DNA from: Obrimoposthia wandeli
Taxonomy: Eukaryota
DNA length: 64,000 nt
Assembly (NCBI GenBank): GCA_977020255.1
Contig: CDROCS010000465.1
Span: 868,001 to 932,000, forward strand
Direction: 5' to 3'
In this document: positions 1 to 46,133 of the stretch, piece after piece
How the letters are laid out: the number at the start of each line of letters is the position of its first letter
Numbering within the stretch: the stretch's first letter is position 1
The notes under the pieces: generated by a model
Told to the model about the DNA's origin: nothing
Databases searched by the model: none
The model's input: the letters and a program-made list of their open reading frames with translations, nothing else
Position numbers and translations under genes: made by a program

Positions 1-873
1 TTGAACCCAAATAGATTTTATTAATGGAAGTTTATTTCCACCCACAAATATCGGTTCAGTAATACTTGTGTAAATATAAATCTGATTATACGCATTACTT
101 AGCTTTGCCCGATTAGATGCTCGGAAAACTTTATTAAGATTTTTAAAACTGTTTTCATTGAATCCTATAATTGTAGCTAAATTTTTATCCATATTTATTT
201 CTTTTACATGTGGTTTCAATTTAAACTCAATTATCTCCTTTTTAACATAAAAGCTTTCAAATATATTATCAATATTTTTCATTAAATATTGACAAAGACT
301 TTCAACATTGGAAAATAAGCAATCATTTTCGAATGCATACTGCTCACGTACATCCTCTTGATTATAATGATGCATCTTTAACTTTAATGTCGGTAAATCA
401 TATTTTTGATTTGGTAATTATGATTTATAAAACATACTTTCAATAGGAGCTTCTTTCATACCGTAACTTAATGCTAAACTTTTATTATCAATTTCTAAAT
501 TGAAAGCTTGTCCCGTAGTGCGAGTTATACAAATTTTGTTTTCGCCGCTAAGGTAAATAACATATTCACTATTAATTGGAGTTAAATACTTGACGAAAAA
601 TTCTCCATGTTTCATTTTCACACCAGCTTCAACTTCAGTTTTTATTCTTTTCTCCGCAACATAATCTATAATTGACCCTCCTTTAATGGATAGAGGAGAG
701 TAATTGAAAGAAAATTCCGTCAGAGCAGCTTCCCAATGCCCAGGTAAATTGATTGAGCTTTGATAATCAATACTAAAACTATTAGCAGTATTATTCGGCT
801 GAGTTAATGGTGAACCATTACTTGGTAATACAACATACATTGAGTTCATTCTATTTGAGAAGCTAATATCCAA
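1..873 (-). pseudogene. Polinton-type minor capsid protein (penton-like) with one in-frame stop
   Basis: N-terminal YVVLPSN...NTANSF...INLPGHWEAALTEFSF motif. After the TAA at 418-420 the same frame stays open to position 1 and reads ...LATIIGF...QIYIYTSITEPIFVGGNKLPLIKSI, resembling the conserved mCP C-terminal motif. Confidence 0.8.
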
Positions 874-1868
874 CTAGGTTCAGTATATCCATGCCACTTA
901 ACATGATATTGTTTATGCTTTCCTCTACCTTTTGTCTCTAAAATTTCTTGGATTCTATATACATTTGGTTTCTCAGGCAAGACTTGTAATTCCTCATGAT
1001 AAAATTTACCCGTGATTACATTATTGGTTTCATCCTCAATGAAATACATTACCGGCATACGTTTATTATCAATTTTAGTTATACGAAATACTTCATCGCT
1101 CCAATTCTCTTTGAAATTCTTTATAAAAGGAGTAGTACTAATTTGAGAAATACGTACATAATCACCAACTTTATACTTGGGTTTCGCGCAACTTGACTTT
1201 GGTTACGGCGTTGCCAAATTTCCATAGCATTCTCATCTGTAACATCAACGGGTCTCTTTCGGTCTAATGATGAGTATTCACTATGATTGTATGCATGTAT
1301 TATTTGAGGTAAAACAGAAACCCAGGACTTATTTCCCTGCTTTGTGAAATACTTTTTCAAACGATCTCTCAATGTTCGATTAAAACGTTCAACTAAAGCG
1401 GCTTTATATTGGGAAAATACTGAGTAATGATTAATATTATGTTTTTTCAATAGTGTTTCAACATGTTTATTATAAAACTCCTTTCCACTATCCGTTTGGA
1501 AATTTCTTGGTTTTATTTCTTTAATCAAAAGCTTCATTGCGGTTAAAACATCGGTACCAGACTTGGACTTTAATGGAATAGCTCGCGCGAATCTGCTAAA
1601 GACATCAACACAAGTTAAAATATATCGATATCCGTCGTTAATACTCGCATACGGAATCATTTCTATCAAATCTGCTTGCCATAAATCATTCGGGCCGCTC
1701 GTTTTGTATGATCTCGTTGGGACGTCTCATTGGTTTGTTTAAGCTGTAAGCTAATTGATTTCTCAACCACGCCTGAGTTTCCTGCTTTGTCTTCTTTGAC
1801 TCTTTTGCTAATTTTGAAACCCCTGTGTAACCAACGGGATGACTTGGATCGAACCATATTTTCTCCAT
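846..1868 (-). pseudogene. Maverick-type retroviral-like integrase (DDE) with C-terminal chromodomain, two frameshifts
   Basis: MEKIWFDPSHPVGYTGVSKL...AYSLNKPMRR, frameshift at ~1722, then PTRSYKTSGPNDLWQADL...QTDSGKEF...LVERFNRTL, frameshift at ~1180, then PKYKVGDYVRIS...NWSDEVF...FYHEELQ...YRIQEILETKGRGKHKQYHVKWHGY (chromodomain). Confidence 0.9.
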
Positions 1869-1965
1869 TGCAGCAAGACGATTTGATTTTTAAATTGAAT
1901 TTAGGAATAGATGGCAGTGATCCCATATATAAATTCATATTATTGATTCGAATTTATGTTTATAA

Positions 1966-2388
1966 TCATCGGTTTATTAGTCTACTAGCAAGTGCACCAA
2001 CTATTGAGCTAATAATTGGTACGAGAAATCCTAAAAATCCACCACTTTGCTTATAAAGCAACTTACGTTTACCGATTCGTGTTTTGGCATGAAACAAAGC
2101 AAGTAGAGGTTTCTTATGCCGATTCAGGTTAGCCTTGACAATTATTTTACCAGAAACTATTTTCTGTATCATATTAAGTAAATCATCAATTACAAAAGTA
2201 GGGAATGATTTAAGAATAGCTGGGCGGCGAATAGCAGGTGCACGCATGAGAGAATTGAAATAGGCAATACTCCTAGATTTCTTAACAACAGTTCTTTTCG
2301 ATTTTTGAGCAACCATTTTCTTTCCACTTAAAACTGATTTAATCAATTTTTTAACTTCGGGTTTAACAGTTTCCTTTTTAAAATTCAT
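1966..2388 (-). CDS. Basic (K/R-rich) Polinton core-like protein ending in QSGG plus an amphipathic hydrophobic tail
   Basis: Intact 140-aa ORF, lysine/arginine-rich, C-terminus KQSGGFLGFLVPIISSIVGALASRL. Its ATG overlaps the ATPase stop (ATGA). Confidence 0.7.
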   Translation of the reverse strand: MNFKKETVKPEVKKLIKSVLSGKKMVAQKSKRTVVKKSRSIAYFNSLMRAPAIRRPAILKSFPTFVIDDLLNMIQKIVSGKIIVKANLNRHKKPLLALFHAKTRIGKRKLLYKQSGGFLGFLVPIISSIVGALASRLINR

Positions 2389-3035
2389 CTTCTCAAAACT
2401 GGTTTCTTTGTTTGTTTATAGACGGTTATTCCCGATGGATTGAATACATCAGTTCTAACTCTAAAGTCATCGGGACAATCTTGAGTAAAATCAATAAAAA
2501 TGTATCCATGAGGAATAGTAGTTGCATCTTGAAATGAATCAATTAAAAACTTTCTATTATTCGGGTAAGCTTGTCTTGAAACAAAATCAACAACCGTCTG
2601 ATCACGTGGATTCTTGAAGTGAACAAGGTAATGTACATTTAAATTACGAGTTCTATGGTTCCCTCCTTGATGAAATAGATTTTGTGTGATGAAAATAACA
2701 GTTACTTCCCGATGTCGTGCTATTTTAGTGAATAAATTATTGAAATCACTCTCTTTATTTGCTTCTTGATATAAGTCATCAATAACAATAACATCATGTC
2801 GCTGTAATCGCTCAGACCAATTATCATCGAATCCATTAATGACTTTTATATTTTTGATTTTCTTAAACTCTTTACTGGTTAAACCAGCTTCTCCATCTCC
2901 TCCCTGATGCCAGTATATTTTATTAAACTTAGAACTAAAGTATTTATTATTTTGCAGTAATTTACATACAAAGTGTGTTTTCCCACTACCACTAGGACCT
3001 ACAATCTGAAAAACTGAATTATTTTTTAAGTTCAT
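2385..3035 (-). CDS. FtsK/A32-like DNA packaging ATPase
   Basis: Intact 216 aa: Walker A GPSGSGKT, Walker B VIVIDDL, ARHR arginine motif, ITQNLF sensor. Confidence 0.92.
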   Translation of the reverse strand: MNLKNNSVFQIVGPSGSGKTHFVCKLLQNNKYFSSKFNKIYWHQGGDGEAGLTSKEFKKIKNIKVINGFDDNWSERLQRHDVIVIDDLYQEANKESDFNNLFTKIARHREVTVIFITQNLFHQGGNHRTRNLNVHYLVHFKNPRDQTVVDFVSRQAYPNNRKFLIDSFQDATTIPHGYIFIDFTQDCPDDFRVRTDVFNPSGITVYKQTKKPVLRR

Positions 3036-3078
3036 ATTAAAAATATTAGATTATCGGGATAATGTTTATAAGACAAAA

Positions 3079-3514: not shown

Positions 3515-4259
3515 TTACACATGATAACGATTAAAAATACGTATTTGATGAAGCATAGCTTCATTAGGAGCAGCAATAGTCCGTTTAGCTTTAACAAGAT
3601 TCGAAGCAGCAGTAACACTAATCGAATGAGATAAAAATGCAATAACAATGCAAGCAGCATGTAAACTACCATAATGACCACATACTAAAATCTTACCACC
3701 ATTTTCGATAGTTTCTTTAATTATATTATTAGTCTGTTTATAATACTTCATTATTGCTTCTTCTAATTTTGAGTTTACAAAGACAGAAGTATATTTTAAT
3801 TTCTTATAAGATATTTTATTCAGTATAGATGTATTGATTACATGAGTGAAATTGGAATTCTAAAGATTAGTTTCATCAAACCCATCTCTATAATTACCAA
3901 TATATAATTGATTTACTAAAATCTCACTCATCGCTGTTTTGTTTAACTTTTCTAAATTAAGTTGAGTAAATCTAGCACTAAACAAACTATCAAAAAGATG
4001 GGTCATGTGGTTCATTTCTATACTCGAAGCATGAGCTATTATGGGTTCCATAAAAGCCAAAGCATTTAAAAAAATCTATCCGTCTCTTATCTTCAATAAT
4101 TGGATCTATAATAATTTCTTCTTCTATCGTCACTTCATCAATAGTTTCTTCTCTTCTTATAACTGTTGTTGTTGTTGCTGATGGTGATGATGGTGATGAT
4201 GTTGCTGGCGATGTTGCTGGCGATGATGTTGCTTCTGGTGCTGAATTGATTTTCTCCAT
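3515..4259 (-). pseudogene. Dual-specificity phosphatase-fold protein with a non-catalytic P-loop and S/T/P-rich N-terminus; one in-frame stop and a probable frameshift
   Basis: SEILVNQLYIGNY...THVIN...GGKILVCGHYGSLHAACIVIAFL...RTIAAPNEAMLHQI matches the DSP layout. The TAG at 3860-3862 is in frame with ORF 3515-3751. ORF 3990-4259 likely joins by a slip in the T run near 4070. Confidence 0.7.
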
Positions 4260-4574: not shown

Positions 4575-4660
4575 GAAAAATCTATTTTTAGACCACAACT
4601 ATTTGCAACATTACAACGTTTGCAACTATTTGCAAGTAATGACATGTGATGTCTTTGTCT
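4575..4660. promoter_or_regulatory. Regulatory module, copy 1 (second copy at 6316-6386)
   Basis: GAAAATCTATTTTTAGACCAC...AACTATTTGCAAC...GCAAGTAATGACATGTGATGTCTTTGTC is shared almost exactly by two intergenic regions of the element. Confidence 0.6.
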
Positions 4661-4699
4661 CTAAGAGAAATCTATTTTTAAAACTATTTGGTTTAGGAA

Positions 4700-5207
4700 A
4701 TAAATAACACAAGTGTGAAGATTTATATTAAACAAAATACATTCAATCAGATACTCATAGTTTAAAGATTTAACACCGAGTATCATAATCTTCCCGCTAG
4801 CAAAAATGTTCACGCATAGGGGATTGTATTTGACGTATCGAAGTCAGGGAAGATTTCTGGCTCGTAAACAGCTTCCGATCCCATACTCTTGCTCATCTTG
4901 TTTAGGTTTATTGATGTTTCTAGATTGCTGCTGAGACTGATAGATTGGATTCTTTCGATTTTTATATCAAAAGGAAGACTGCTTTCATCCAGCACTGTTT
5001 TGCAACCCATTATTCTGCATGTACCTAAATTATAATTATATATAAATGTAAAAATAAATTACCAGATTTGAAAATGATAATAGTGTAACCTTCACACTTG
5101 AGTCGATACTGATGAGGCTTCGAAGTCCGAAATGGTAAGTGTTGAATGTTACTTACAACCATTCCCTTGTAATTAATATTCACTAATTTGATATTGTGAA
5201 GTAGCAT
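4700..5207 (-). pseudogene. TATA-binding protein (TBP)-like gene, two repeats, 38-nt intron (5025-5062), one frameshift near 4845
   Basis: IKLVNINYKG...TIIIFKSG|TCRIMGCK...IQSISLSSNL...INLNKM...YEPEIFP, frameshift, LRYVKYNPLCVNIFASGKIMILGVKS. These parallel the TBP motifs LIFxSGKxVxTGAK and YEPELFPGL. The 3' end is approximate. Confidence 0.8.
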
Positions 5208-5270
5208 TTCTGATTATTATAAACGGATTTCTTCTATTTATACAATTTGAACATCTATTTTTAGATTTGC

Positions 5271-6272
5271 TTAATTGCCTATGCTATGAAATCTAATATT
5301 TCTTACTCGTCTAATGATAATTGTCTTGCAATATGGACATGTAATAAAACGATCTGAACATTTAATACACGTGTTTAAGTGACCGCATGGTAAAAATGCC
5401 ACGGAAATCGCATCGCTCATGCAAACAACACATTCGGGATTTGGTAAGAGGTACTCGAGATAATTTATCCGATGTTTTGGTTCAGATTTTATTTCTAAAG
5501 ACCTTACATCCGTTATAAACTCATATATAGAATCATATTTGTTACCGAATGTTTTAAACCTATTAACTAAAACGGCTTTGATTCTATCATGACTGTAATC
5601 ACGTTTCAGCAAAACTATTTGACGAGTTTCCATCTGAGCATCAATTTCATCATTACTAATATGATATTCAACAATACATCCGTTCTTGATTCCCATACTA
5701 GATGCTTTACAATCTCGAGTATGAAAGATTCTTTCGGGCATAGTATCAATAAGGTCAAGTCGGGGTACTGCTTTCCGACAGAAACAACATCGATAAGAAT
5801 CATTCCAAATATATACATGATCGAAAATCGATAATGTAGGTATTTCAATATCATTAGAATAATTATTGCGCACAATAACTACTTTATCCATTGGAGTTGT
5901 ATCAAAATCAATTTGGGTGGTGTTGGAATCAATTATTGGTACGTTTGAAACATTCATTTTCAAAAAAAACGGGCATCTTGGGAAAAATAGCTGATGCTGT
6001 TTCATTGGTTTCAGATAGTACTCCCATCCCGATATTCCTCCCTGACAGTAAATACACTTTACATTATCTTTCGAATCATCGTGCTTGTAAAATCCTGCTT
6101 TTGCTAAAGCTTTCTTATCGGCTAAACCAGTAAACTTTGCTTGTAACGATTCTAATCTTCTTTCTTCATATATCATATTTTCATTTATTCTTGAAATATT
6201 ATCAAAACGCCGTCGTCTAATGGTGAGTTCTCCGTTTTCTGAAACATAATGTGCAATAAATTTAGTAGTCAT
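5271..6272 (-). CDS. Inhibitor of apoptosis (IAP): BIR domain, degenerate second BIR-like region, C-terminal RING
   Basis: Intact 333 aa. RRLES...LAKAGFY...VKCIYCQGGISGW...QHQLFFPRCPF (BIR); CVVCMSDAISVAFLPCGHLNTCIKCSDRFITCPYC (RING). TATATAAG lies 29 nt upstream. Confidence 0.92.
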   Translation of the reverse strand: MTTKFIAHYVSENGELTIRRRRFDNISRINENMIYEERRLESLQAKFTGLADKKALAKAGFYKHDDSKDNVKCIYCQGGISGWEYYLKPMKQHQLFFPRCPFFLKMNVSNVPIIDSNTTQIDFDTTPMDKVVIVRNNYSNDIEIPTLSIFDHVYIWNDSYRCCFCRKAVPRLDLIDTMPERIFHTRDCKASSMGIKNGCIVEYHISNDEIDAQMETRQIVLLKRDYSHDRIKAVLVNRFKTFGNKYDSIYEFITDVRSLEIKSEPKHRINYLEYLLPNPECVVCMSDAISVAFLPCGHLNTCIKCSDRFITCPYCKTIIIRRVRNIRFHSIGN

Positions 6273-6315
6273 AACAAAATTGAATGATGAAATTGTCTAG
6301 CTTATATAGTAAGTG

Positions 6316-6398
6316 AAAATCTATTTTTAGACCACATTACAACTATTTGCAACTTTTCGCAAGTAATGACATGTGATGTCTTTGTCTTAGTATAAACA
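6316..6398. promoter_or_regulatory. Regulatory module, copy 2, in the divergent promoter between the IAP and the + strand ORFs, ending in TATAAACA
   Basis: Near-identical to 4575-4660; flanked by TATATAAG (minus strand, 6301-6308) and TATAAACA (plus strand, 6391-6398). Confidence 0.6.
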
Positions 6399-6424
6399 AT
6401 ATTTTGATAATGATTTTATTGAAA

Positions 6425-6738: not shown

Positions 6739-7128
6739 ATGAATTTCGAAAAGCTATATCAACCTATGCATACATATTATGGATATGAGATGCACTTTTT
6801 GAAGAAAGCTCATAACTATAATTTTATTTTTCCTGTCAACATCGAGCCGCTTAAATTTGATTTTGAAATATCAAATTTGACTTCTGAGGATAAAGAGAGA
6901 ATCAATATTCTCTTGACTCAATTCGGAATCAACTATGCGCTTCAGTAAAACAAATTCGTAATCAAAGGATCAACTGCCACTTTCAAGCATGAGAATGGAA
7001 CAATATACGAAGCACCTCCTCCTAAGCTAGAATGGATTCTCTCAATCAGAATTCAAGGATGCAAGATCGGGCCCAGTGGATTGGAAACTCCGATATGGAA
7101 AATAATTGATACTGTTAGAGTTGACTAA
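6739..7128 (+). pseudogene. Hypothetical ~129-aa protein with one in-frame stop (6946-6948)
   Basis: The frame stays open after the TAA: NKFVIKGSTATF...LEWILSIRIQGCKIGPSGLETPIWKIIDTVRVD*. An AATAAA overlaps the final stop. Confidence 0.55.
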
Positions 7129-7195
7129 TAAATTTTTGTGTCTTTATTTGTATTATTTTATATATATAAACAATAGTGATACTTTAATATTTATT

Positions 7196-7652: not shown

Positions 7653-7979
7653 AAGAATAAATGTTACTATTGATTACATAAATATGCAAGTATTTGCAAT
7701 ATAGATGCAGTACGTGACTGTCTTTGTTAGATAGATATAGGAACGTTTAAACATGATTATCAAATTATATAATACTTTATTTTATAAGTAGATAGTTTAA
7801 TTTAATTTAATTTAAATAAATTTATCAAATTATATAATACTTTATTTTATAAGTAGATAATTTAATTTAAATTATAAAACACACACACACACTAGATGTA
7901 TTTTAATGAATTGGTGTTAATACAGTCTTTAGATAAAAAGATATATAGATTTAAAGAATGTTACTAAAAATAGAATATT

Positions 7980-8505
7980 TTTGACCTCACCGTGACCTTA
8001 AGTTGTCCTCATGACCTTAAGTTGACCTTAAAGTACATTGTCCTCATCATGAGCTTAACTTGACCTTAAAGTACATTGTCCTCATGACGTCATGACCTTA
8101 AGTTGACCTTAAAGTACATTGACCTTAACTTGACTTGACCTCATGAGGTCATGACCTACATCTTGTCCTCACCGTGACCTTAAGTTGACCTCATGAGGTC
8201 ATGTCCTCACCGTGACTTTAAACTGTGCTCAAGGGGGGGTATGCTCAAAATGTCTTTGTCCTGAAAGACACACATCCCCCTACTTGATGTGTGTCTTTCA
8301 GGACAAAGACATTTTCCTGAGCATAGGGGGGTCATGACCTCATGAGGTCATGACCTAGATTTTTCCCATGACCTCATGAGGTCATGACCTACATCTTGAC
8401 CTCACCGTGACCTTAACTTGACCTACATTTTTTGTCCTCAACTTGACCTTAAAAAATTTTGTTCTCAGGGGGGGCTTTGTTCCAGAAGTGCTACATCTAC
8501 CTACT
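7980..8505. repeat. Terminal (inverted) repeat region of the Polinton-like element, built from TGACCT/AGGTCA modules
   Basis: About 24 exact TGACCT/AGGTCA hexamers by manual count. It ends CTTTGTTCCAGAAGTGCTACATCTACCTACT, an ending shared with 55100-55155. The partner repeat is outside the window, so its inverted nature is inferred. Confidence 0.75.
8240..8325. repeat. Perfect hairpin inside the terminal repeat
   Basis: AAAATGTCTTTGTCCTGAAAGACACACATC (8247-8276) is the exact reverse complement of 8286-8315, with a 9-nt loop. TATGCTCA/TGAGCATA extend the stem. Confidence 0.9.
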
Positions 8506-17900: not shown

Positions 17901-20900
17901 GAAGTTCCGTGTCTAGTACTGATAATTCCTTTTACTAAATACAACTAGGCTCCAGATCCCATATATCCTGAGGGAAATTACTGAGGAAACCAGCTATCTT
18001 TAATGACCAATTAAAATTACGTGCAGCCAATTTAATAAAAGTTACTTGTTGCTACTCAACGGTGATGGTCAAATCATTCAATTAATGAAATTTACTTATA
18101 GTATTTATAATACATTTCATTATGTGATTCAGCAAAATTGCTGAATCTTGTATTTGGTCATTCAAAAAGGCCAATTTGTGGCCAGGGATGTGTTGTGTGC
18201 ACTGCAGGTATTGGTGTGGGGTTTGGTTATATACTATTACTGCTGAAAATAATGTAGATGTTCATCCATGAGATTTTGGTCTAGATATTAATGTTGTTGA
18301 TACAAAAAGATTCAAAGTGGTTTGGATTGATTCATTTGATATTAAAAGACATAAAACAGATCCCTGATACTCCCAATACTGATTACAACTAGTAGAGCCT
18401 TTGGCAAAATTGAAGTGTACATGAACCTTTGGACCTTTTTGATATGAATATTACAAAATGTACTACCTCAACTTTCATAGTTTATATATATCCTTTTCTC
18501 AAATTATTCGAGGAATACTTCGAGTCTATCAAAGTTAATCATATATTCTTTCTCATCTCGATGAGACGAATATTTTGGTGCTACTTTTGATAATATCCAA
18601 TCTAAATTGCAATAATTAGCAAAATTGAATTTATTCTACAGTATAATATGTATATATCCCTTTCTCTGTGAATACTTCGACTTTGTCAAAATAAACTATA
18701 TATATCCTTTCATATCTCGTTGAGACAAATGTTTTGGTACTACTTGCGATTATATTCGAGCCAAATTGCAATAATTAGCAAAATTAAATGTTATTAATAA
18801 TGTACACAATAAAATATGGATTAAATCAATTAACTGTATTTTTTTTACAAATTCGCCTAATTCTCAGGACATATAAATCGACCATAGATGATATTTTAAC
18901 ACAAGATAAATAATTTCTTCCTCTATAAGATGGATGTAATTTGAAACATACTTTTGATTATTTTCGTCTATACAAGGCTCCAAAGAGGGTACTGAAATTC
19001 ATACAAAGTCATAAATCTAGTGAATAATTCAAAAAAGTATTAAACTAATCATGGAAATAAACACAAATTATTTTGTTTTCGTTAAGACTTAATTTTTGAT
19101 ACTAATTTCAAAAGGTCATTATCAGGATTAACTTATTTAGATTAAAATATCCTTAGAATAGTTTACATTTTAGAAATTCAATTTTGTGAAAAAAATACAG
19201 AAAAAGGGTCATTTTTCAAATCTGAATTTATTCAACTTTCAAAAAAGTCATGAAATATTGAAAGGTTTTCATAATTGTTACAATTTTAAAATCATTTAAA
19301 TAATTTCGCGGATCCCACACTGCACAGAATGCAAATAATTGATTTTTCATACTTATAAACATTTATAATGATCAACTTTAACACATTCTTTCTTTCTCAA
19401 CAATTGTCTATGTATATGTTGAAAATGATGCTCTCAATTATATGGAACAAATATATATAATGTAGAATAGGTATGTGAAATATTTCAAGTAGTTTGTCGA
19501 ATAAAACTATTTTATCATTTGCGTTTCTCCAAAGAAGCACCAGAAGTTTGTTCACGTATCTCACAATATTTGTTGGAAGAATTCTGATGACAACACTCGA
19601 CTACGTGTATCACGAATAGTGACTGCATTTCTTTTGTCAAAGTCACAAATTATTGTTCTTCACACGTAATTTTGATGTGAATGATTTTGGGCTATTTTCA
19701 TATCTCAAATCTCAAGGCTATAATAATTTCATGGTTCGATTACTAATTTAAAATTTTGGTCTAATTTTTAATATGTATTAATGTATCTTAGGAATAAATT
19801 AAATTTTATTGATCTTTTTGAGACTGGAGCAGTGTACATTTATAAACAATTTTCAAATTAAAAATGTATATAAACATACAACAGTAATCAAAAATGTTCT
19901 AATAAAAGCTACCTTATTATTCATACAATTACAATGCTGACGCATGCGTTTATTACATCAGGACTTGATTTTTTAAATTCTTTATTATTTAATATTCTAG
20001 CTTATCAATTAAATCCCTGGTTAAAATTTTTAAACAAAGCTGCCTGAATTATATTAAAATGAAAGAAAAGTGCTAATCAAGTGAACACTTAATTAAGCTT
20101 CATTGGTTTATCATTGCCAGATTTAAATTCAAGATTCTACTTATAATCAAAAAAAGTCTTTTTCGATTTTGTAGCATGTGAGTGAGCATGTATATGCATC
20201 TTAGGAGGAAAGAGGAGGACTGCCGTTTAGTTAGGTAATTCTCAAATAACAAACAGTATGATGAAATATTTGAAATTTACAACAATTTATCGACAAATAT
20301 AAGAAACTGTAACAATGTTGAAAATTTCAGGAAGCAGCTGAAGAATAGACTTTTCAGAAAATAATAAAAAGAATAATAGAAAACAGGTTTTATTAGATAA
20401 TAGTCCTATATTAGATATATTATTAATGTTAAGAAGTTGATAATTGAAATTTTGAAACAAAAGCAATTATGTTAATAGTTTAAAATATTTGAACTAATTA
20501 TGGAATAAAATATCATATTTTGGTCGAAGACAGAATTAGGCTAAGCAATTTAGAATAATTGCTTTGGATAATTGCCTCGGCGCCGGCTATATTCTTTTAC
20601 TTTTTTAAACTCTCATTTTTATAAAGGTTTAATGTTGCTAAAATGAGTATTATCACGAGTAGCATGAGTGTGTTTGTGTACAGAAGAGCCGGAGGAGAGC
20701 AGTGTGGCACGGTACAACTCGTGGGGCCACGGTGGTGGAGGCCTGCACCAGCGCAGGGGTGCAGTCAACTACAGCTCGGACGAGCTCAACAAGCTGCTAG
20801 ACTCATGCGAGGTTCCGGGTCTCGTCATCGACGGAAAGAAGAACTACCGCTGCAAGTTCTGCGGCAAGATGTACGAGATCAAGAGCAGTATCCGCTACCA

Positions 20901-21081
20901 CATTCGCATCATCCACCTGAAGATGCACCTCAAGACTGCAGACATGCGCTGCAAGTTGTGTGGCCGGGTCTTCACTTGTGCCACGGCTGCCAACAAGCAC
21001 CAGATGCGCTGCCTCAACAAGACTGCTGCCGCCACAACTGCCGTTGCCGCTGCTGCATCTACCGCCACCACCTTGCAGTAG
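14942..21081 (+). CDS. C2H2 zinc-finger transcription factor-like gene; exons 14942-15349, 17452-17755, 20684-21081 (~369 aa)
   Basis: GT-AG junctions have matching phases (0, then 1). GC-rich exons sit in AT-rich introns. Fingers: YRCKFCGKMYEIKSSIRYHIRIIH and MRCKLCGRVFTCATAANKHQMRC. The ATG follows a CAG acceptor, so an upstream exon is possible. Confidence 0.8.
15870..16400 (+). mobile_element. L2/CR1-like LINE 3' fragment
   Basis: Decayed MLTHAIITSILDF...QLNHLQ...KLHWLPI, the conserved region downstream of the L2/CR1 RT. Related copies occur elsewhere in the window. Confidence 0.7.
16590..16830 (-). mobile_element. L2/CR1-like LINE fragment, inverted relative to 15870-16400
   Basis: ORF 16632-16847 reads MLTHAIITSKLDF...NIPAYQLNILQT. 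It has a 34-bp perfect reverse-complement match to the + copy. Confidence 0.7.
18486..18790. repeat. Diverged tandem duplication of ~140-165 bp
   Basis: GAATACTTCG...ATCTCG(A/T)TGAGAC...AAATTGCAATAATTAGCAAAATT occurs twice. Confidence 0.7.
19900..20400 (+). mobile_element. L2/CR1-like LINE 3' fragment
   Basis: ACAATGCTGACGCATGCGTTTATTACATC...AAGCTTCATTGG...TTCAAGATTCTAC, homologous to 15870-16400. Confidence 0.65.
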
Positions 21082-22494
21082 CCAGTGTTACCGGAAAACT
21101 CCATACCTCTCATTCGTCAACTTGATGCACTCGCTTGGAACTGTTTTGAATCCACAACGATTTCATTTTAGAGCATTTTTGAAGTGTAACATTTCAAGTT
21201 CCGGAGTTGTGAGTTTCTGGCTAGTGGTAGTAAATCATCTCCATACACACACACACAGGAAACGCCTTTGAAAGTAAATACTGTAAATTCACAATCATCT
21301 GCAGTTGGCATTGCATCTAGCACCAAAAAAAATTGTGTGTTAAAATTGACTCTAATTTGTGTACTTCAAACCACTTTTTCCTCAAAATAAAAATCTGTCT
21401 CTAACGTTTGCGTATAACCTAAATCAGCAGAATAAAATTCGTCCACATAAATTACAGCTATAAAACAAACGTTTCTCTAAGAAAGTTGTAAAATTTGAGA
21501 ATTGCAATAAACAAGATAAATAATATTCAGAAAATGTTTTTGTACATATTTCTTGTTTATTTGATTCATACACAAATTTGTCTTCATTTTTGAGTAAAAA
21601 TTGTGGTCAAAGTAACAAAATCCAGAGTCGACTTGTTTTACAGTTACTACCTAAATCACATTGTGGTTGATCGAAAATTGAATATTTGGTGCTGTGTGTG
21701 GTGCTAACTGTAGGTTCTCCCAGATCAGAAATGATAGGAAAGTCGTAAAAGTAAGTTACGTAAATTCCAAATTTTACAGTGCCCGCAAATACATGTACGG
21801 CTGATTCTGACCGTTTTCCTCACATCAGCATCATCGAATGAACCTCATCCTCGGCACATTCTTCCCTTTGTGTGATAACCGGGTATAGCTTTAAAAATAT
21901 CTTTCAGAGGTTGTGTCAATGGTATTTATTTTACAATGATGAAGTTTGGTTCTCCTAATTCTAACCCCAGTAATAGTGTCTTTTATTTTGAGTTTTATGA
22001 CTTAGATCTATCAACAAACACCCCGCTTCATACTTCTATCCATCGTTGTCTTCTATAATGAGATGTTTCTTTTTCTTTATTTACTCCAATTCTTTAAGTT
22101 TATTTGTTTAGTTAATGATTATTTGGTGCCTCTTTGTTTGCATAATTTTGTCGGCTTTCTTTAATCGAATATCACTATCTCTTTCTCACATGAAGAAGAT
22201 GTTTACTATTTCAGTTCTATTCCTCTGTACGGTGCTGTCTGGCAGCGCCTACAGAACTGTGATTAATATCCTTTAGAATCGTGTTCAAACTTTGTTGTGT
22301 CAACCTGACGCTGGCTGTATATACTCCCGCTGTATGTCGGATCGTCGATCGACATGTGTACAATATTAGTCTCTGTTTAGTATATAATTTATTGGCAAAT
22401 ATGTATAGATTCTTAATGTGTTTTCTGTCTGTGTTTTTTGGAGGGATAGGTTATGTTCTACTACGTTCGACATTATCATATGATCCGTTTGAAC

Positions 22495-41840: not shown

Positions 41841-43049
41841 ATTAACTAATTTCTTATACAATTTTTTTGTTGGTAAAATCGTTTTATTTGATAAACTTAA
41901 ACTGAGTAGGAATTTGATAAATTAAAAAAAACCTTAACTTATTTTAAAATTTCTTTTGCAAGAAGCCTTTTTAGAAGCACTTTTCAACCATATATGACCT
42001 AAATAAATCGTATTTATTCAATCAACCTTATTTTTCTTATTGTGATATTGATTTTGAAATTTTTGTAAAATATTGAAAAGGTAAACTTAAGCTATTCATT
42101 TATTTATTACTTTTAAATAAAACTAGATGTATAAATAATATTAAAAATGTTGATGTCCAAAATTAAACAAAATAATAAATTAAATTGGTTAAAATGACAA
42201 AAAACATATTAAAGTTAAAACGAATTAAAAATTATAATTTCACATACAAAAATGTCAACTAAAAGAAAGGTTTTTAATTTTAATGCCATAATCACAAAAT
42301 CCAATTAATAATGAATAGATAATGTCCTAATACCGAATACATAACGAAGATAAAAGTCAGCCACGAACCGAGTAATTCAGCAAGTTCTATTGGCAGTGAA
42401 TTTCAGTCTGCAAGAAAATATTTGGAATTTCCCAAATCCCGACGTCATTGGTCGCTATAAGAAGAACCAGTGGAGACGACAGCAAAACAATTACAAAACG
42501 CAAAGTCTTGGACAGAAGAGAAATACTGAATACTCTTCAAATCAAACAACAACTCCTCGGATGACAGCAACAACTGTGCTTCAGACGGTAAGAAGTGCAA
42601 GTTACATGTAATAATAAAAAAAGTAACACGTGAAAATAACGAGATAAACTTAATCGTATTAATATTCGAAGATCCGTCATGACCCCAGCCTTAATTGTAG
42701 TCATAAAAGCATAGAAAACCGCTTAACAGCCGCACCCACAGAATATGGCGCAATTCTCTGTTTTCCCCATATAAAGTAGACCTAGTTCCACCATAAAATA
42801 CATTCCAAACCCCATTATAAACCCCTGAAAACTGAAAATCTCATAGTGCATGCATAAAGTGCTCAAATGCTGTTAGGGCCCGCGATGGCCCTCTGAGCGG
42901 AGCGATATATAAATATGAAAATCACTTTATTCCTGTCATTTAGCAATTTGATGGGCTGCGATATGTACCATATACTTCTGCAAGCGTTGAGCCTGTTTCT
43001 GCGCTGTAGTATCTGTCATTTTTCAATTGACAGATAAATTCCTGGATAT

Positions 43050-43985
43050 TTTGGTGCATTTTGAAGGAGTCTATCTGCATTTTTTGATTATCTAGTTTGA
43101 GAAACTCATGAGAACTTTGGTATCACTCCTCTGACACATTCTGTCTTCTGTCAACACCTAGAGAGCAGCAACAGCCTCTTTTCCTACATAACCAAATCGT
43201 TGCTGCTATGTAGATATTGAGACAATATGTGTCAGAGGAGTGATACTAAGATTCTCAACGAGTTTCTTCAGCCAGATATTCATAAACCGCTCTCCACGTC
43301 TTTACAATAATGCCAGCAAGATGGAGTGAGAAGATCATTCTGGCCTAGTACGAGTTGGCAACGATGGTCTGGACTCTAAGCAGGTGTTCATTGGTTTGTT
43401 CATGCTGGTATACATGAAGATAGACGTGTACTTGCTTGCTGACTTCTTCACCATATTCCAGATGATAGCCATCGCTGACGACGGGCTCGAGCCACTCAAT
43501 TTTTTATTCATACCTGGTTTGTATCTATATTTTTCACTATGCAAATTTTGTAATTTGATACTTAATTTTCAGTAAATGCAGTTAATCGTTTTTCATTGAT
43601 TAAAGTTTAGTTGATTAAATGATTCATAAGCAGTAAATTTTGCATTTAATTTATAATTCTATCCACGGACTGACGTTCACAAGTGCCTTCAAATCTCTGT
43701 TAAACCAAAATCTTTCACATATGCTGCCGATTCGGGTGCTGCTTCCACCACAGCCGTTGTTGCTTCCACATCTGCTACCAATAGTCGAGCTGATTCAGAA
43801 CCCGGATATGTATAATCTCTTCCAGACTGAGATTTGAGGCGGTATGATCTTCTTCAACACACACACGGTGGACACTATCAATGGTACCGAAGTACTTTAC
43901 ATCGATGTGAATAACCTCTATGGATGGATCATGTACCAATTTTTGCCTTGCGGTTACTTGTGGGTAACTGACCGATTAAGGTAGG
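43050..43985 (+). pseudogene. Decayed Polinton-type protein-primed family B DNA polymerase fragment
   Basis: Collinear motifs GVY, YELATMVW, YMKIDVYLLADFF...GLEPLNFLFIPG, ELIQNPDMYNLFQTEI*GG, and YIDVNNLYGWIMYQFLPCG (motif A). Confidence 0.8.
43101..43266. repeat. ~165-bp inverted repeat (hairpin / MITE-like) inside the PolB remnant
   Basis: TATCACTCCTCTGACACAT (43121-43139) is the exact reverse complement of 43227-43245. Imperfect pairing extends outward and inward. Confidence 0.85.
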
Positions 43986-46133
43986 GTGAATTGTAACTGC
44001 TTTTAAATTTTCGGATCTCTTTTGCTCATTAATGGAAAGTAGGGTTTATTTATTTCCAATGTGTTGTTTAATAAATTTGACTATCTCCTCTGTTCTGATT
44101 AAGCAGTACCCGCAAGCTAGTAAAACGCCTAAATTATTAATGACCCATTATAATAAGAAATGCTTCACATTTTGTCTACAGAGGAATTCTGTTTGTACAA
44201 ACTAATGTTGTTTTTTTGTGAAATATATCTAGGATAATTTGACGCAAAAAGCTTTAGCTTCAACAGATTTTGAGAAGGATTAATATAAACGGAAAGTTAA
44301 TTCTTTGTTTAGGAAAGAAAAAAAAGTCAGAAAATCTAATGTAAATGTTCAAGCTGATTTGTTACATGCTATGATTGCTGATGGGCTGTTGCGTATCATG
44401 AAGTATTCAAAAAAATCAACTGCTATATACAACAATAAGAAAATTTAAGGATGAGAGTAAGGGGTTATTTAGCTTTTAGGCAAGGAATATTTCTATTTCC
44501 AAAATCATATAGCTTAGAGACTACAAAAAGAGAATGCCAGCTGACAAATGTAAGTGGTTAGAGAAGAATCGGCCAGCAACATACGGTTACATATTAATAC
44601 CCTGACGATGTTAGCTAATCTTTTTATTTGTACAATTTTTGTTGTGATTTTAATAAATAGAGTTTTAAAAATCTTTTTCTTACTAGATTATTTTGTTTTT
44701 ACGAGAATTATTTAATTATTATTTGAGTATTTTTAATAATATTTAATTCTTAAAAAAATTCATAAAATTTATTGAATTTTAAATGATTATTTATATTATC
44801 TTATTTAAATTAAAAAGCAACTGTCTCTTAATATATACAGACTACTTCAGTCTTATTAACAATCTAATATGCAAATGAGGCAACTGCCAATAAGAGCTTA
44901 TTTAAACATTTTTAGATAATTAATTTCATTTTTTAAAATGTCACATAGTACATGCTCACACACAAATACTTATGCCAATGTATTACCTTTTCAAATATCA
45001 TCTTTTTTCTACAAGTTTTAAATTACGTGACCAACTTTGTTACACATTCATACACTTGTAATCTTTACATAAACATTAATTAAGCTCTAATATTATTTAA
45101 TGGTTTTTAAGCAAGAAAATGTTAAATATATTGAATAGTTTAGATATATTTAATTTTTATTAGATATTCTTTTACGATTTCCTGTCTAGTATCTTTGATT
45201 GAACTTCAAGATATTTAAATTTTATTTTCTAATTATATATGATTTTGTATAAACAGTATAGTTCAACAAAATCGATGTTTTGTATAACGTTAAAATTTGC
45301 ACAACTGAATTCTTTTTGTTTTAAATTAATAATTTATTCTGAGCTAACGATTATTCTGATATTTTATATAAATTATTTCAAAATTTGGTTTTAATTCTTT
45401 TTCATAATTTATGAAATGTAAAAATGACAAAAGTTGAGGAAAATATATTAAAATTACAATCATTTCTCGTGTGTATTTTTCATAAATATCCGACCAACAC
45501 AAAACTTGCCTATCAGGATTGGAAGCAACAGTTTCCTTTCCCAAGTTTGTTGACTTTTTGTTTGCTGCCAAGGTTATTCCGTGGTCCATGTGCATTATGG
45601 ATTTTGCTGCCATTCAGTGGCAGTTTCATTGTCCAACAATCTAGCACCAATAACAATTGTGATGAAAATTTGGGATACTCTTTCTATTCATGTTTAGTCT
45701 GTTTATCTGCCTGTTATGTGCGTGTGCGTATCTCATGACAACAACAGAAACAAATAACAATTACCATCTTTTATAATTTTTCTCTTGTATCTAAAGAAAT
45801 ATTTGTTAGCTACTTCTGTTATTTTAAAAATAGAATCATTAGAAAAATATACTATCTATATAAACATTTGCAAACTTTATTTGTATTATTCTTACAATTA
45901 GTTTGGATTTATTATTTTTGTTTTAGTAAATCATTGATATCCATTCGAAGAACAAATTAGTTATCGCGATATAAATAAGGCGGGAACGTCTGATGATTAA
46001 CAACATGTTTCAATTGATTTTCCCAATAGTAAGTTTGATCAACTTGTTGATGTTTTTCTGAACTTGGAAATGTTTTTACAGTTCTAAGAAGTTTTAAGTA
46101 TAAAGAATTTGATTTTCTAAACATATTTATTCT

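Follow-up and report, generated by a model that had tools for sequence, protein, structure and literature searches.

The locus studied here raised the question of whether a Polinton carries its own TATA-binding protein (TBP), whether such a gene is anything other than a decaying copy of the host gene, and which promoters its product might serve. It lies in a 64,000-nucleotide stretch of the Obrimoposthia wandeli genome (contig CDROCS010000465.1), which was analysed as a whole and is called the window below. An initial annotation, made from the letters of the window, had proposed that a Polinton/adintovirus-like element encodes a minimal two-repeat TBP with altered sequence specificity.

The TBP-like gene and its element

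We found the gene on the minus strand of the window, where it starts with an ATG at 5207 and ends with a stop codon at 4661. The initial annotation had the start right, whereas its end fell about 40 nt short of the real stop. The motifs by which it had recognised a two-repeat TBP were found where it had placed them, in three minus-strand frames, with IIFKSG in the first, CRIMGCK...YEPEIFP in the second and NIFASGKIMILGVK in the third. The single frameshift it had postulated is present in the window copy at about 4845-4850, just 3' of YEPEIFP. A DNA search of the genome returned 2,283 first-look candidates, 40 of which were scored, and full-length matches were 99% identical. The search for intact copies that had been suggested as a check was successful at this site: among 20 copies that were fetched and compared, the frame was open through it in 14 (132 codons) and broken in six, the window copy being one of the latter. 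The frameshift is copy-specific, and the window copy is a dead, frameshifted insertion that is non-functional as it stands.

Profile searches identified the encoded domain. The broken window fragment scored 21.4 bits against the Pfam TBP family (PF00352), just below the cut-off of 22.9, and the open exon-2 frame of one sister copy (L009) reached 47.2 bits (E 2e-12). That open frame of L009 also matched 35 TBP sequences in the PDB, with a best E-value of 6e-14. The likeness to TBP is thus greater than expected by chance, and the proposed TBP fold holds for the gene as read from an open-frame copy. The exon-1 frame of L009, which covers the N-lobe, found no match in a Pfam search and matched the profile of the family with 99% probability (E 9e-18).

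The proposed 38-nt intron is well supported, and we infer that it is spliced. A segment with 92% AT that starts with GT and ends with AG separates IIFKSG from CRIMG in all 20 fetched copies. A second TBP family of the genome carries 39-40 nt at the same site (GT-AG in four of six loci), a third carries a 39-nt GT-AG segment, and one metagenome locus (L060) has a 40-nt GT-AG segment there. There was no insert in a fourth family of the genome (9 loci) or in 36 of the 37 metagenome loci in which both anchors were present. Thirteen database proteins begin at a Met just past the intron site, like gene calls that comprise exon 2 only. Host TBP genes have introns of 47 and 48 nt, and the site of the Polinton TBP intron is not used by an intron in the host TBP gene.

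The surrounding element is a Polinton, as proposed, with pPolB, an rve integrase, an A32 ATPase, a double jelly-roll (DJR) capsid protein, a protease and terminal inverted repeats (TIRs; Table 1). It spans about 16.6 kb and is bounded by inverted repeats of about 840 bp with 85% identity. Genes for the capsid protein (MCP), the protease, a 179-aa exonuclease-like ORF and pPolB lie to the left of the window. The pPolB gene is broken here; in the adjacent stretch (L022) it shows PF03175 split between two frames and a weak match to endonuclease VII; the protease is in two pieces and was found by tblastn with a PF00770-positive relative. The capsid protein of 408 aa had no sequence match in Pfam or the PDB and scored 0.98 to DJR clusters in the atlas, and the predicted model of a relative matched the capsids of PBCV-1, an iridovirus and mavirus (E 1e-14 to 1e-12). 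An RNA polymerase gene was not seen in the element of about 17 kb. Several genes of the window copy are split over frames, and the copy is therefore a decayed insertion.

Table 1. Features of the Polinton in the window (positions in the window).
Feature	Position	Strand	Basis
Putative minor capsid protein, two frames	1..873	-	named from position; no Pfam match
rve integrase with C-terminal chromo-like part, two frames	846..1726	-	Pfam rve PF00665, 5.6e-15
TATAAAC box, 26 nt before small Met-Gly ORF (c21 by resemblance)	1958..1964	-	sequence
PX-like basic protein	1966..2388	-	weak Pfam Adeno_PX match, E 0.007, under cut-off; conserved in relatives
A32-like genome-packaging ATPase	2385..3035	-	Pfam Pox_A32, 2.7e-6
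TATAAAC box, 32 nt before PX-like start	2414..2420	-	sequence
TATAAAC box, 35 nt before packaging ATPase start	3064..3070	-	sequence
Dual-specificity phosphatase-like gene, two frames	3515..4051	-	Pfam DSPc, 7.7e-13
TBP-like exon 2 (end of N-lobe and whole C-lobe)	4661..5024	-	frameshifted in window copy
Putative 38-nt GT-AG intron, phase 1, inside Gly codon	5025..5062	-	predicted
TBP-like exon 1 (N-lobe strands up to IFxSG motif)	5063..5207	-	family profile match via same frame of copy L009
Canonical-type TATA box (TATAAAT), 35 nt before TBP start; putative early promoter	5236..5242	-	sequence
IAP (BIR and RING)	5271..6272	-	Pfam BIR 2.4e-13, RING 1.2e-11
TATAAAC box before 71-aa ORF upstream of SSB-like gene	6391..6397	+	sequence
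Broken gene resembling cluster c2 of relatives	6739..7130	+	likeness
Right TIR of about 840 bp (85% identity with left TIR)	7674..8505		blastn vs adjacent stretch L022:1922-2667

Some smaller features of the window were also recorded. The c2-like gene was read by eye and presumably encodes an OB-fold single-stranded DNA-binding protein (SSB-like). A small ORF starting with Met-Gly (1666-1938, minus strand) resembles cluster c21 of relatives, and its product is possibly a virion membrane protein that might be myristoylated. A promoter block of about 85 nt with TTGCAA repeats and a MEF2-type site is duplicated at 4575-4660 and 6314-6400, and a MEF2-type site also precedes the TATA box of the TBP gene (about 5256-5265). 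Further to the right lie a host C2H2 zinc-finger-like exon, read by eye (20625-21271, plus strand), and a separate decayed pPolB fragment (42900-44550, plus strand).

The element resembles the adintoviruses of Starrett et al. 2021 (PMC8502044) in its pPolB, rve, A32, double jelly-roll capsid, protease, PX, TIRs and IAP, and differs from them in its TBP, a gene that sections 3.1, 3.2 and 3.4 of that paper do not discuss and that does not appear in the text of its Fig. S2 with the animal maps. "TBP" occurs there as a bare label in the legend of Fig. 5, for MELD viruses with adintovirus-like PolB. This label was the only hit in the literature for Polinton, Maverick or adintovirus together with TBP or TATAAAC, the sequence files and tables of that paper's supplement being outside the scope of the search. 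The mention of TBP in PMC10675990 concerns mirusvirus-like elements. No description of the TBP family or of the promoter box described below, and no published Polinton promoter, was found in this literature; the word "TATA" is absent from the main text of PMC11161782 and of two 2026 preprints.

Spread and ancestry of the TBP family

A protein search yielded 30 relatives among 35 candidates, with lengths of 119-200 aa and identities of 41-56%, and a profile search of a library clustered at 50% gave 62 clusters at E<=1e-30. Among ten elements of the genome that were picked by capsid or polymerase, nine had the TBP in place and the tenth was ambiguous; one contig picked by its ATPase also carried it. 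Another gene of the element was present at 45 of 79 metagenome TBP loci, many of the others being short and seven of the 79 being weak matches. The gene was retained while gene order changed, and the IAP and phosphatase genes were sporadic. The initial annotation had not counted TBP among the known core genes of Polintons; it is a core gene of this whole lineage and not a one-off, and other copies do sit in Polintons, as the initial annotation had asked to be checked.

Within the 1.35 Gb host genome, first-look candidates numbered 19,768 for TBP, 24,442 for pPolB and 30,237 for the capsid protein, figures that are not copy numbers. The TBP-bearing lineage is hugely expanded in this genome, and the TBP-less lineage described next is rare. 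As a rough estimate, at least a fifth of the genome could consist of the TBP-bearing lineage if most candidates are real. We observed at least four TBP-bearing Polinton families in the genome, and pieces of this lineage occurred in many of the control stretches.

The same genome harbours a second Polinton lineage with a PF21738 capsid (196 candidates), a PLA2-integrase, an ATPase, PX and pPolB. We found no TBP of their own in 20 elements of this lineage, each read over up to 20 kb, and TBP occurred in these stretches only as three nested insertions of the TBP-bearing lineage.

If the gene were a passenger or a recent processed copy derived from host TBP and decaying within the element, this would account for the frameshift in the window copy, and the host does have several TBP paralogues, some of them without introns in the core. 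We consider this origin of the gene to have a negligible probability. In a tree of 64 rows, which held no verified giant-virus TBP and whose bootstrap had yet to settle fully, 41 rows of the family formed one side of a 100/100 branch with a length of 1.28, and the three host rows grouped with eukaryote TBPs, so that the family stood apart from host TBPs in the phylogeny that had been suggested as a check. The gene shares 41-56% identity with the family, compared with 34% to a host paralogue over an alignment of 59 residues, and the intron site is not shared with the host TBP gene. The family is under purifying selection, with dN/dS ratios of 0.05-0.42 across 19 overlapping, non-independent pairs and of 0.14 between two subfamilies of this genome. 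The tree and the purifying selection refute the retrocopy origin. Judged by its sequence, the gene is a true, old, element-borne TBP. With regard to the doubts raised beforehand, the fold is that of TBP, the gene is present in other copies of the element, and it is no recent copy of the host gene. Three unclassified rows (P0142, P0162 and P0170), for which there is no genomic context, adjoin the family in the tree; their placement may reflect long-branch attraction.

Host TBP itself is 78-82% identical to animal TBPs. Among the host paralogues (L102-L111), the canonical TBP shares a contig with a second TBP in head-to-head arrangement; two further types are divergent, and in one of them the stirrup and the Asn positions are altered. 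Several host TFIIB/Brf-like genes, apparently duplicated, were also observed (L156-L161); the core of host TFIIB is split over exons.

In a collection of viral contigs we found no relative of the TBP, the window ATPase or the capsid profile, the ATPase profile hitting only three weak, unrelated contigs, and a phage collection held nothing for ATPase or TBP. One contig of 3.8 kb that had been binned in a Bacteroidota MAG (L155) is a piece of a Polinton and carries PLA2, TBP, ATPase and integrase, and the 144-aa cluster of the ESM atlas that is most like the family is labelled archaeal, with few records. Polinton TBPs may be misfiled as prokaryotic in databases. Accessory genes near TBP in relatives (L062:1918-3327, L092:606-1739 and the L082-L088 loci) include those for an LRR protein, a KilA-N/zinc-finger protein and C2H2 zinc fingers.

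Fold and DNA-binding face

The check by structure prediction was made on an intronless natural relative of 150 aa (P0011), about 51% identical, in place of the spliced window protein, and the TBP fold stood for this relative. It was predicted with a pLDDT of 94.9 as a two-lobe, ten-strand saddle like that of cellular TBP. Every match listed by Foldseek at E<=0.001 was a TBP chain, and 147-149 of the 150 residues could be aligned with cellular TBPs (Z 13-13.7, rmsd 2.6-3.1; human TBP: Z 13.7, 147 aligned, rmsd 2.7). Fold matches in BFVD were at 10-21% identity.

The family consists of a lone domain of 145-165 aa, about 30 residues shorter than cellular TBP. The P0011 model has no helix of four or more residues before position 83, the N-lobe helices H1 and H2 of cellular TBP being absent. 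Longer members such as L082 and P0176 keep the N-lobe helix lengths by alignment, those of the L082 type without the basic motif. By these alignments, N-lobe shrinkage marks a short subgroup that includes the window gene. In cellular TBP, the basic patch of N-lobe H2 binds TFIIA, TAF1, Brf1 and Mot1 (PMC7221094).

Residues were counted in 162 proteins, which remained from 178 after removal of 13 cellular-like rows and three rows flagged by pattern; they are given with yeast numbers, obtained via an Arabidopsis alignment plus an offset. Three of the four intercalating phenylalanines of cellular TBP are kept (F116 in 141/141, F190 in 158/159 and F207 in 156/156), and the equivalent of F99 is absent. 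The Asn pair of the DNA face is broken, with N69 kept in 120/126 and N159 replaced by Ser or Thr in 160/160. What had been claimed for the window gene, namely three kept Phe, a changed first stirrup and a repeat-2 Asn replaced by Ser, was correct and proved to be family-wide. Further N-lobe replacements were V71 by Asn (100/126), V122 by Arg (141/142) and T124 by Met (157/157), and in the C-lobe V161 was replaced by Thr or Ser, I194 by Arg (124/160), V203 by Cys (124/158) and L205 by Asn (155/158). We take V71, V122, T124, N159 and V161 to face the DNA. Positions 194, 203 and 205 are the three that are changed in TBPm3, a laboratory mutant with altered specificity, and the N-lobe of TBP reads the 3' half of the box (PMC1636458).

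The C-lobe stirrup is retained as in cellular TBP, with the acidic pair E186 (142/159, plus 9 Asp) and E188 (156/159) conserved. These two glutamates bind TFIIB (PMC7221094). P191 is mostly kept (138/159). The substitutions on the DNA face, together with a matching promoter box, suggest that the DNA specificity of the family is altered.

A promoter box and its likely reader

In the element of the window, TATAAAC was found 26-42 nt before the genes for ATPase, PX, the Met-Gly ORF, capsid and the exonuclease-like protein. Across the loci, YATAAAC occurred 60-10 nt before 67 of 96 virion/packaging starts, at a distance of about 36 nt, versus 0 of 55 TBP starts; the p-value of 5e-20 holds if loci are independent, and they are related to each other. 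An ordinary TATA box preceded 29 of the 55 TBP starts. The eight virion/packaging classes were our choice, with several names taken from position, and had the box in 19/20 (ATPase), 15/16 (PX), 9/13 (minor capsid), 6/10 (capsid), 7/9 (PLA2), 9/15 (exonuclease-like), 1/6 (pVII-like) and 1/7 cases (protease). Integrase had it in 4/12. Within this genome the counts were 6/6 for the exonuclease-like gene, 5/6 for ATPase, 4/5 for PX, 2/2 for capsid and 0/6 for TBP. After removal of upstream regions that were at least 70% alike, ATAAACA preceded 63 of 191 non-TBP starts of metagenome loci versus 3.6 expected, and CATAAAC 28 of 191 versus 1.3 expected. Widening the search to 220 nt revealed one box in 42 TBP promoters. 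The box at 6391 in the window precedes a non-structural ORF and fits a simple late class poorly.

Several other elements were considered and dropped. TATAAGC was rejected as a second form of the box (7/24 and 3/37). The site upstream of the TBP and IAP genes, which we take to be of MEF2 type, occurred in 2 of 42 TBP promoters versus a background of 2.5% and is no family-wide TBP element. Control by p53 or CREB found no support in these loci, neither the CRE (12/42) nor the p53 core (6/42) being enriched. The words TCATTA/TCATAA were enriched upstream of TBP genes (22/42 versus 5.4 expected) and would, we assume, fit a Pol II initiator. As a further side observation, the cluster like the Met-Gly ORF carried the YATAAAC box in 4/4 relatives. 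No link between boxes with C as the first base and TBP residues was seen by eye.

The box might be read by a factor other than the viral TBP, such as a host forkhead protein or a helper large DNA virus, with the TBP fold bending DNA in replication, integration or packaging. The motif core matches RYAAAYA, the forkhead consensus, into which ATAAACA fits, and virophages and some Polinton-like viruses share promoters with their helper viruses, which sets a precedent. We regard this explanation as improbable. When open reading frames were taken without labels, 101 of 156 YATAAACA sites preceded an ORF, at an interquartile distance of 33-39 nt, but the reverse orientation did so in only 9/145 and GTAAACA in only 9/57, at or below the rates of control words (4-29%). 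The forkhead reading was weak when tested in this manner. A purine at position 1 cut the rate to 9/54, the constant orientation and distance of the box agree with a core promoter element, and a TFIIB stirrup would be useless in a role outside transcription.

The second Polinton lineage served as a control. Its ORFs had the box in 5 of 111 cases, with 0/13 for capsid, 0/15 for ATPase and 0/9 for PX, in what is a single contrast with one distant, AT-richer and decayed lineage, in which many ORF starts are fragments. Several of its starts (L176-L215) show a T-rich stretch and a run of A directly before the ATG, which to us recalls promoters of the poxvirus type; the second lineage could, on such sequences, use a helper virus.

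The box thus goes together with the lineage that bears a TBP and is missing from the lineage that lacks it, which speaks against a role of the viral TBP as a decoy. As such it would sequester TFIIB through its Glu-Pro-Glu stirrup or occupy host TATA boxes and so damp host or immune transcription, with host factors reading the box. The DNA face has indeed lost one Phe, one Asn and both Thr, whereas the TFIIB-binding glutamates remain, and the TBP gene adjoins host-modulating genes here (IAP, phosphatase). However, a decoy would leave the invariant new polar residues of the DNA face unexplained, and the TBP is kept across gene orders in which IAP and phosphatase are sporadic. We would give little credit to this explanation.

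The variant TATA box is probably read by the TBP of the element itself. Our main reading, to which we assign a probability of roughly 0.6, is that viral TBP made early would read the box and bring host TFIIB and Pol II to the late genes, "late" being read from gene function. Host TBP/TFIID would transcribe the viral TBP gene and other early genes from ordinary TATA boxes. The viral TBP would then bind the 8-bp YATAAACR, a TATA variant in which position 7 is C and position 1 often is as well, and its intact C-lobe stirrup (Glu-Pro-Glu) would recruit host TFIIB and hence Pol II, with no need for a viral TFIIB. A Pfam search for TFIIB gave 29 first-look candidates genome-wide versus 19,768 for TBP, none of the family matches tracking the element; a very divergent TFIIB would be missed by this search. 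Loss of the N-lobe H2 surface would free the viral TBP from control by TFIIA, TAF1, Brf1 and Mot1/BTAF1, a step limited to the short subgroup because L082 and P0176 keep their N-lobe helices. Capsid and packaging genes would be switched on only once the viral TBP is made.

A stricter version of this model is an orthogonal switch made of one protein, a tiny TBP without the regulatory surface and competent for TFIIB, with its own YATAAACR that host TBP uses poorly. In this case the viral protein would be expected to favour YATAAACR over TATAAAAG more than host TBP does. We hold this version only tentatively, at somewhat short of even odds. The C at position 7 presumably corresponds to C(-25) in PDB entry 1QN3. 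That entry is cited as a Hoogsteen-pair structure of cellular TBP on the C(-25) variant (PMC8643651), which would cut both ways: cellular TBP can bind a box containing C, through a Hoogsteen pair, and selections with TBPm3 (PMC1636458) disfavoured C in the 3' half. The Epstein-Barr virus protein BcRF1 binds TATA and TATT alike in vitro (PMC4893493), and therefore a residue change need not mean a switch of specificity.

Alternatively, a relaxed viral TBP might supplement limiting host TBP at all viral promoters and evade Mot1, TFIIA and TAF control, with host TBP reading the box too. Besides the crystallisation of cellular TBP on the C(-25) variant, this would be in line with TBPm3 being less stringent and not switched (PMC1636458), and with the retention of P191 although the first base of the box is often C. 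We nevertheless consider such a general booster unlikely: it does not predict that all 55 TBP promoters lack the box, ordinary TATA boxes being found among them, and the new residues of the DNA face are near-invariant, not relaxed.

For the main reading, in which the viral TBP serves the late genes through the box, the closest parallel is the herpesviral vTBP (EBV BcRF1, KSHV ORF24, HCMV UL87), which acts at TATT. Both represent a viral TBP fold working with host Pol II, both would place structural genes behind a one-base variant of TATA, and both have TBP-like Phe and a polar DNA face (PMC12529657, PMC4893493). ORF24 differs in being large and part of a six-protein viral complex, in its absence of the TFIIB-binding glutamates and in being modelled as incompatible with TFIIB (PMC12529657). 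The Polinton TBP, in contrast, is a lone domain of 145-165 aa with the glutamates kept and YATAAAC as its box, and no partner gene common to all gene orders of the TBP-bearing relatives was found. By analogy, it would work like the vTBP-TATT system without being a member of it, and close homology is not implied; TBP and box together hint that the element has an early-to-late switch of its own, as herpesviruses do. The TBPs of Nucleocytoviricota and mirusviruses likewise combine a TBP fold in a dsDNA virus with a diverged regulatory surface of the N-lobe, but their TFIIB-binding positions have diverged and they tend to co-occur with a viral TFIIB (PMC7221094), whereas the Polinton TBP keeps these positions in an element of about 17 kb.

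These results touch on the question of whether Polintons are real viruses and how expression of their capsid genes is timed. A viral TBP with a matching box would provide a concrete mechanism for Polintons, which encode no RNA polymerase. Next to herpesviruses and giant viruses, Polintons would be a third independent case of viruses using a TBP, and the only one with a seemingly direct connection to host TFIIB; the family can also be viewed as a natural mutagenesis of the DNA face of TBP. Should the orthogonal switch be true, Polintons would possess a self-contained early/late programme, which would be evidence that they live as real viruses independently of a helper, and the TBP and its box would constitute a naturally occurring pair of altered specificity, the protein being changed at the positions that were mutated in the laboratory in TBPm3.
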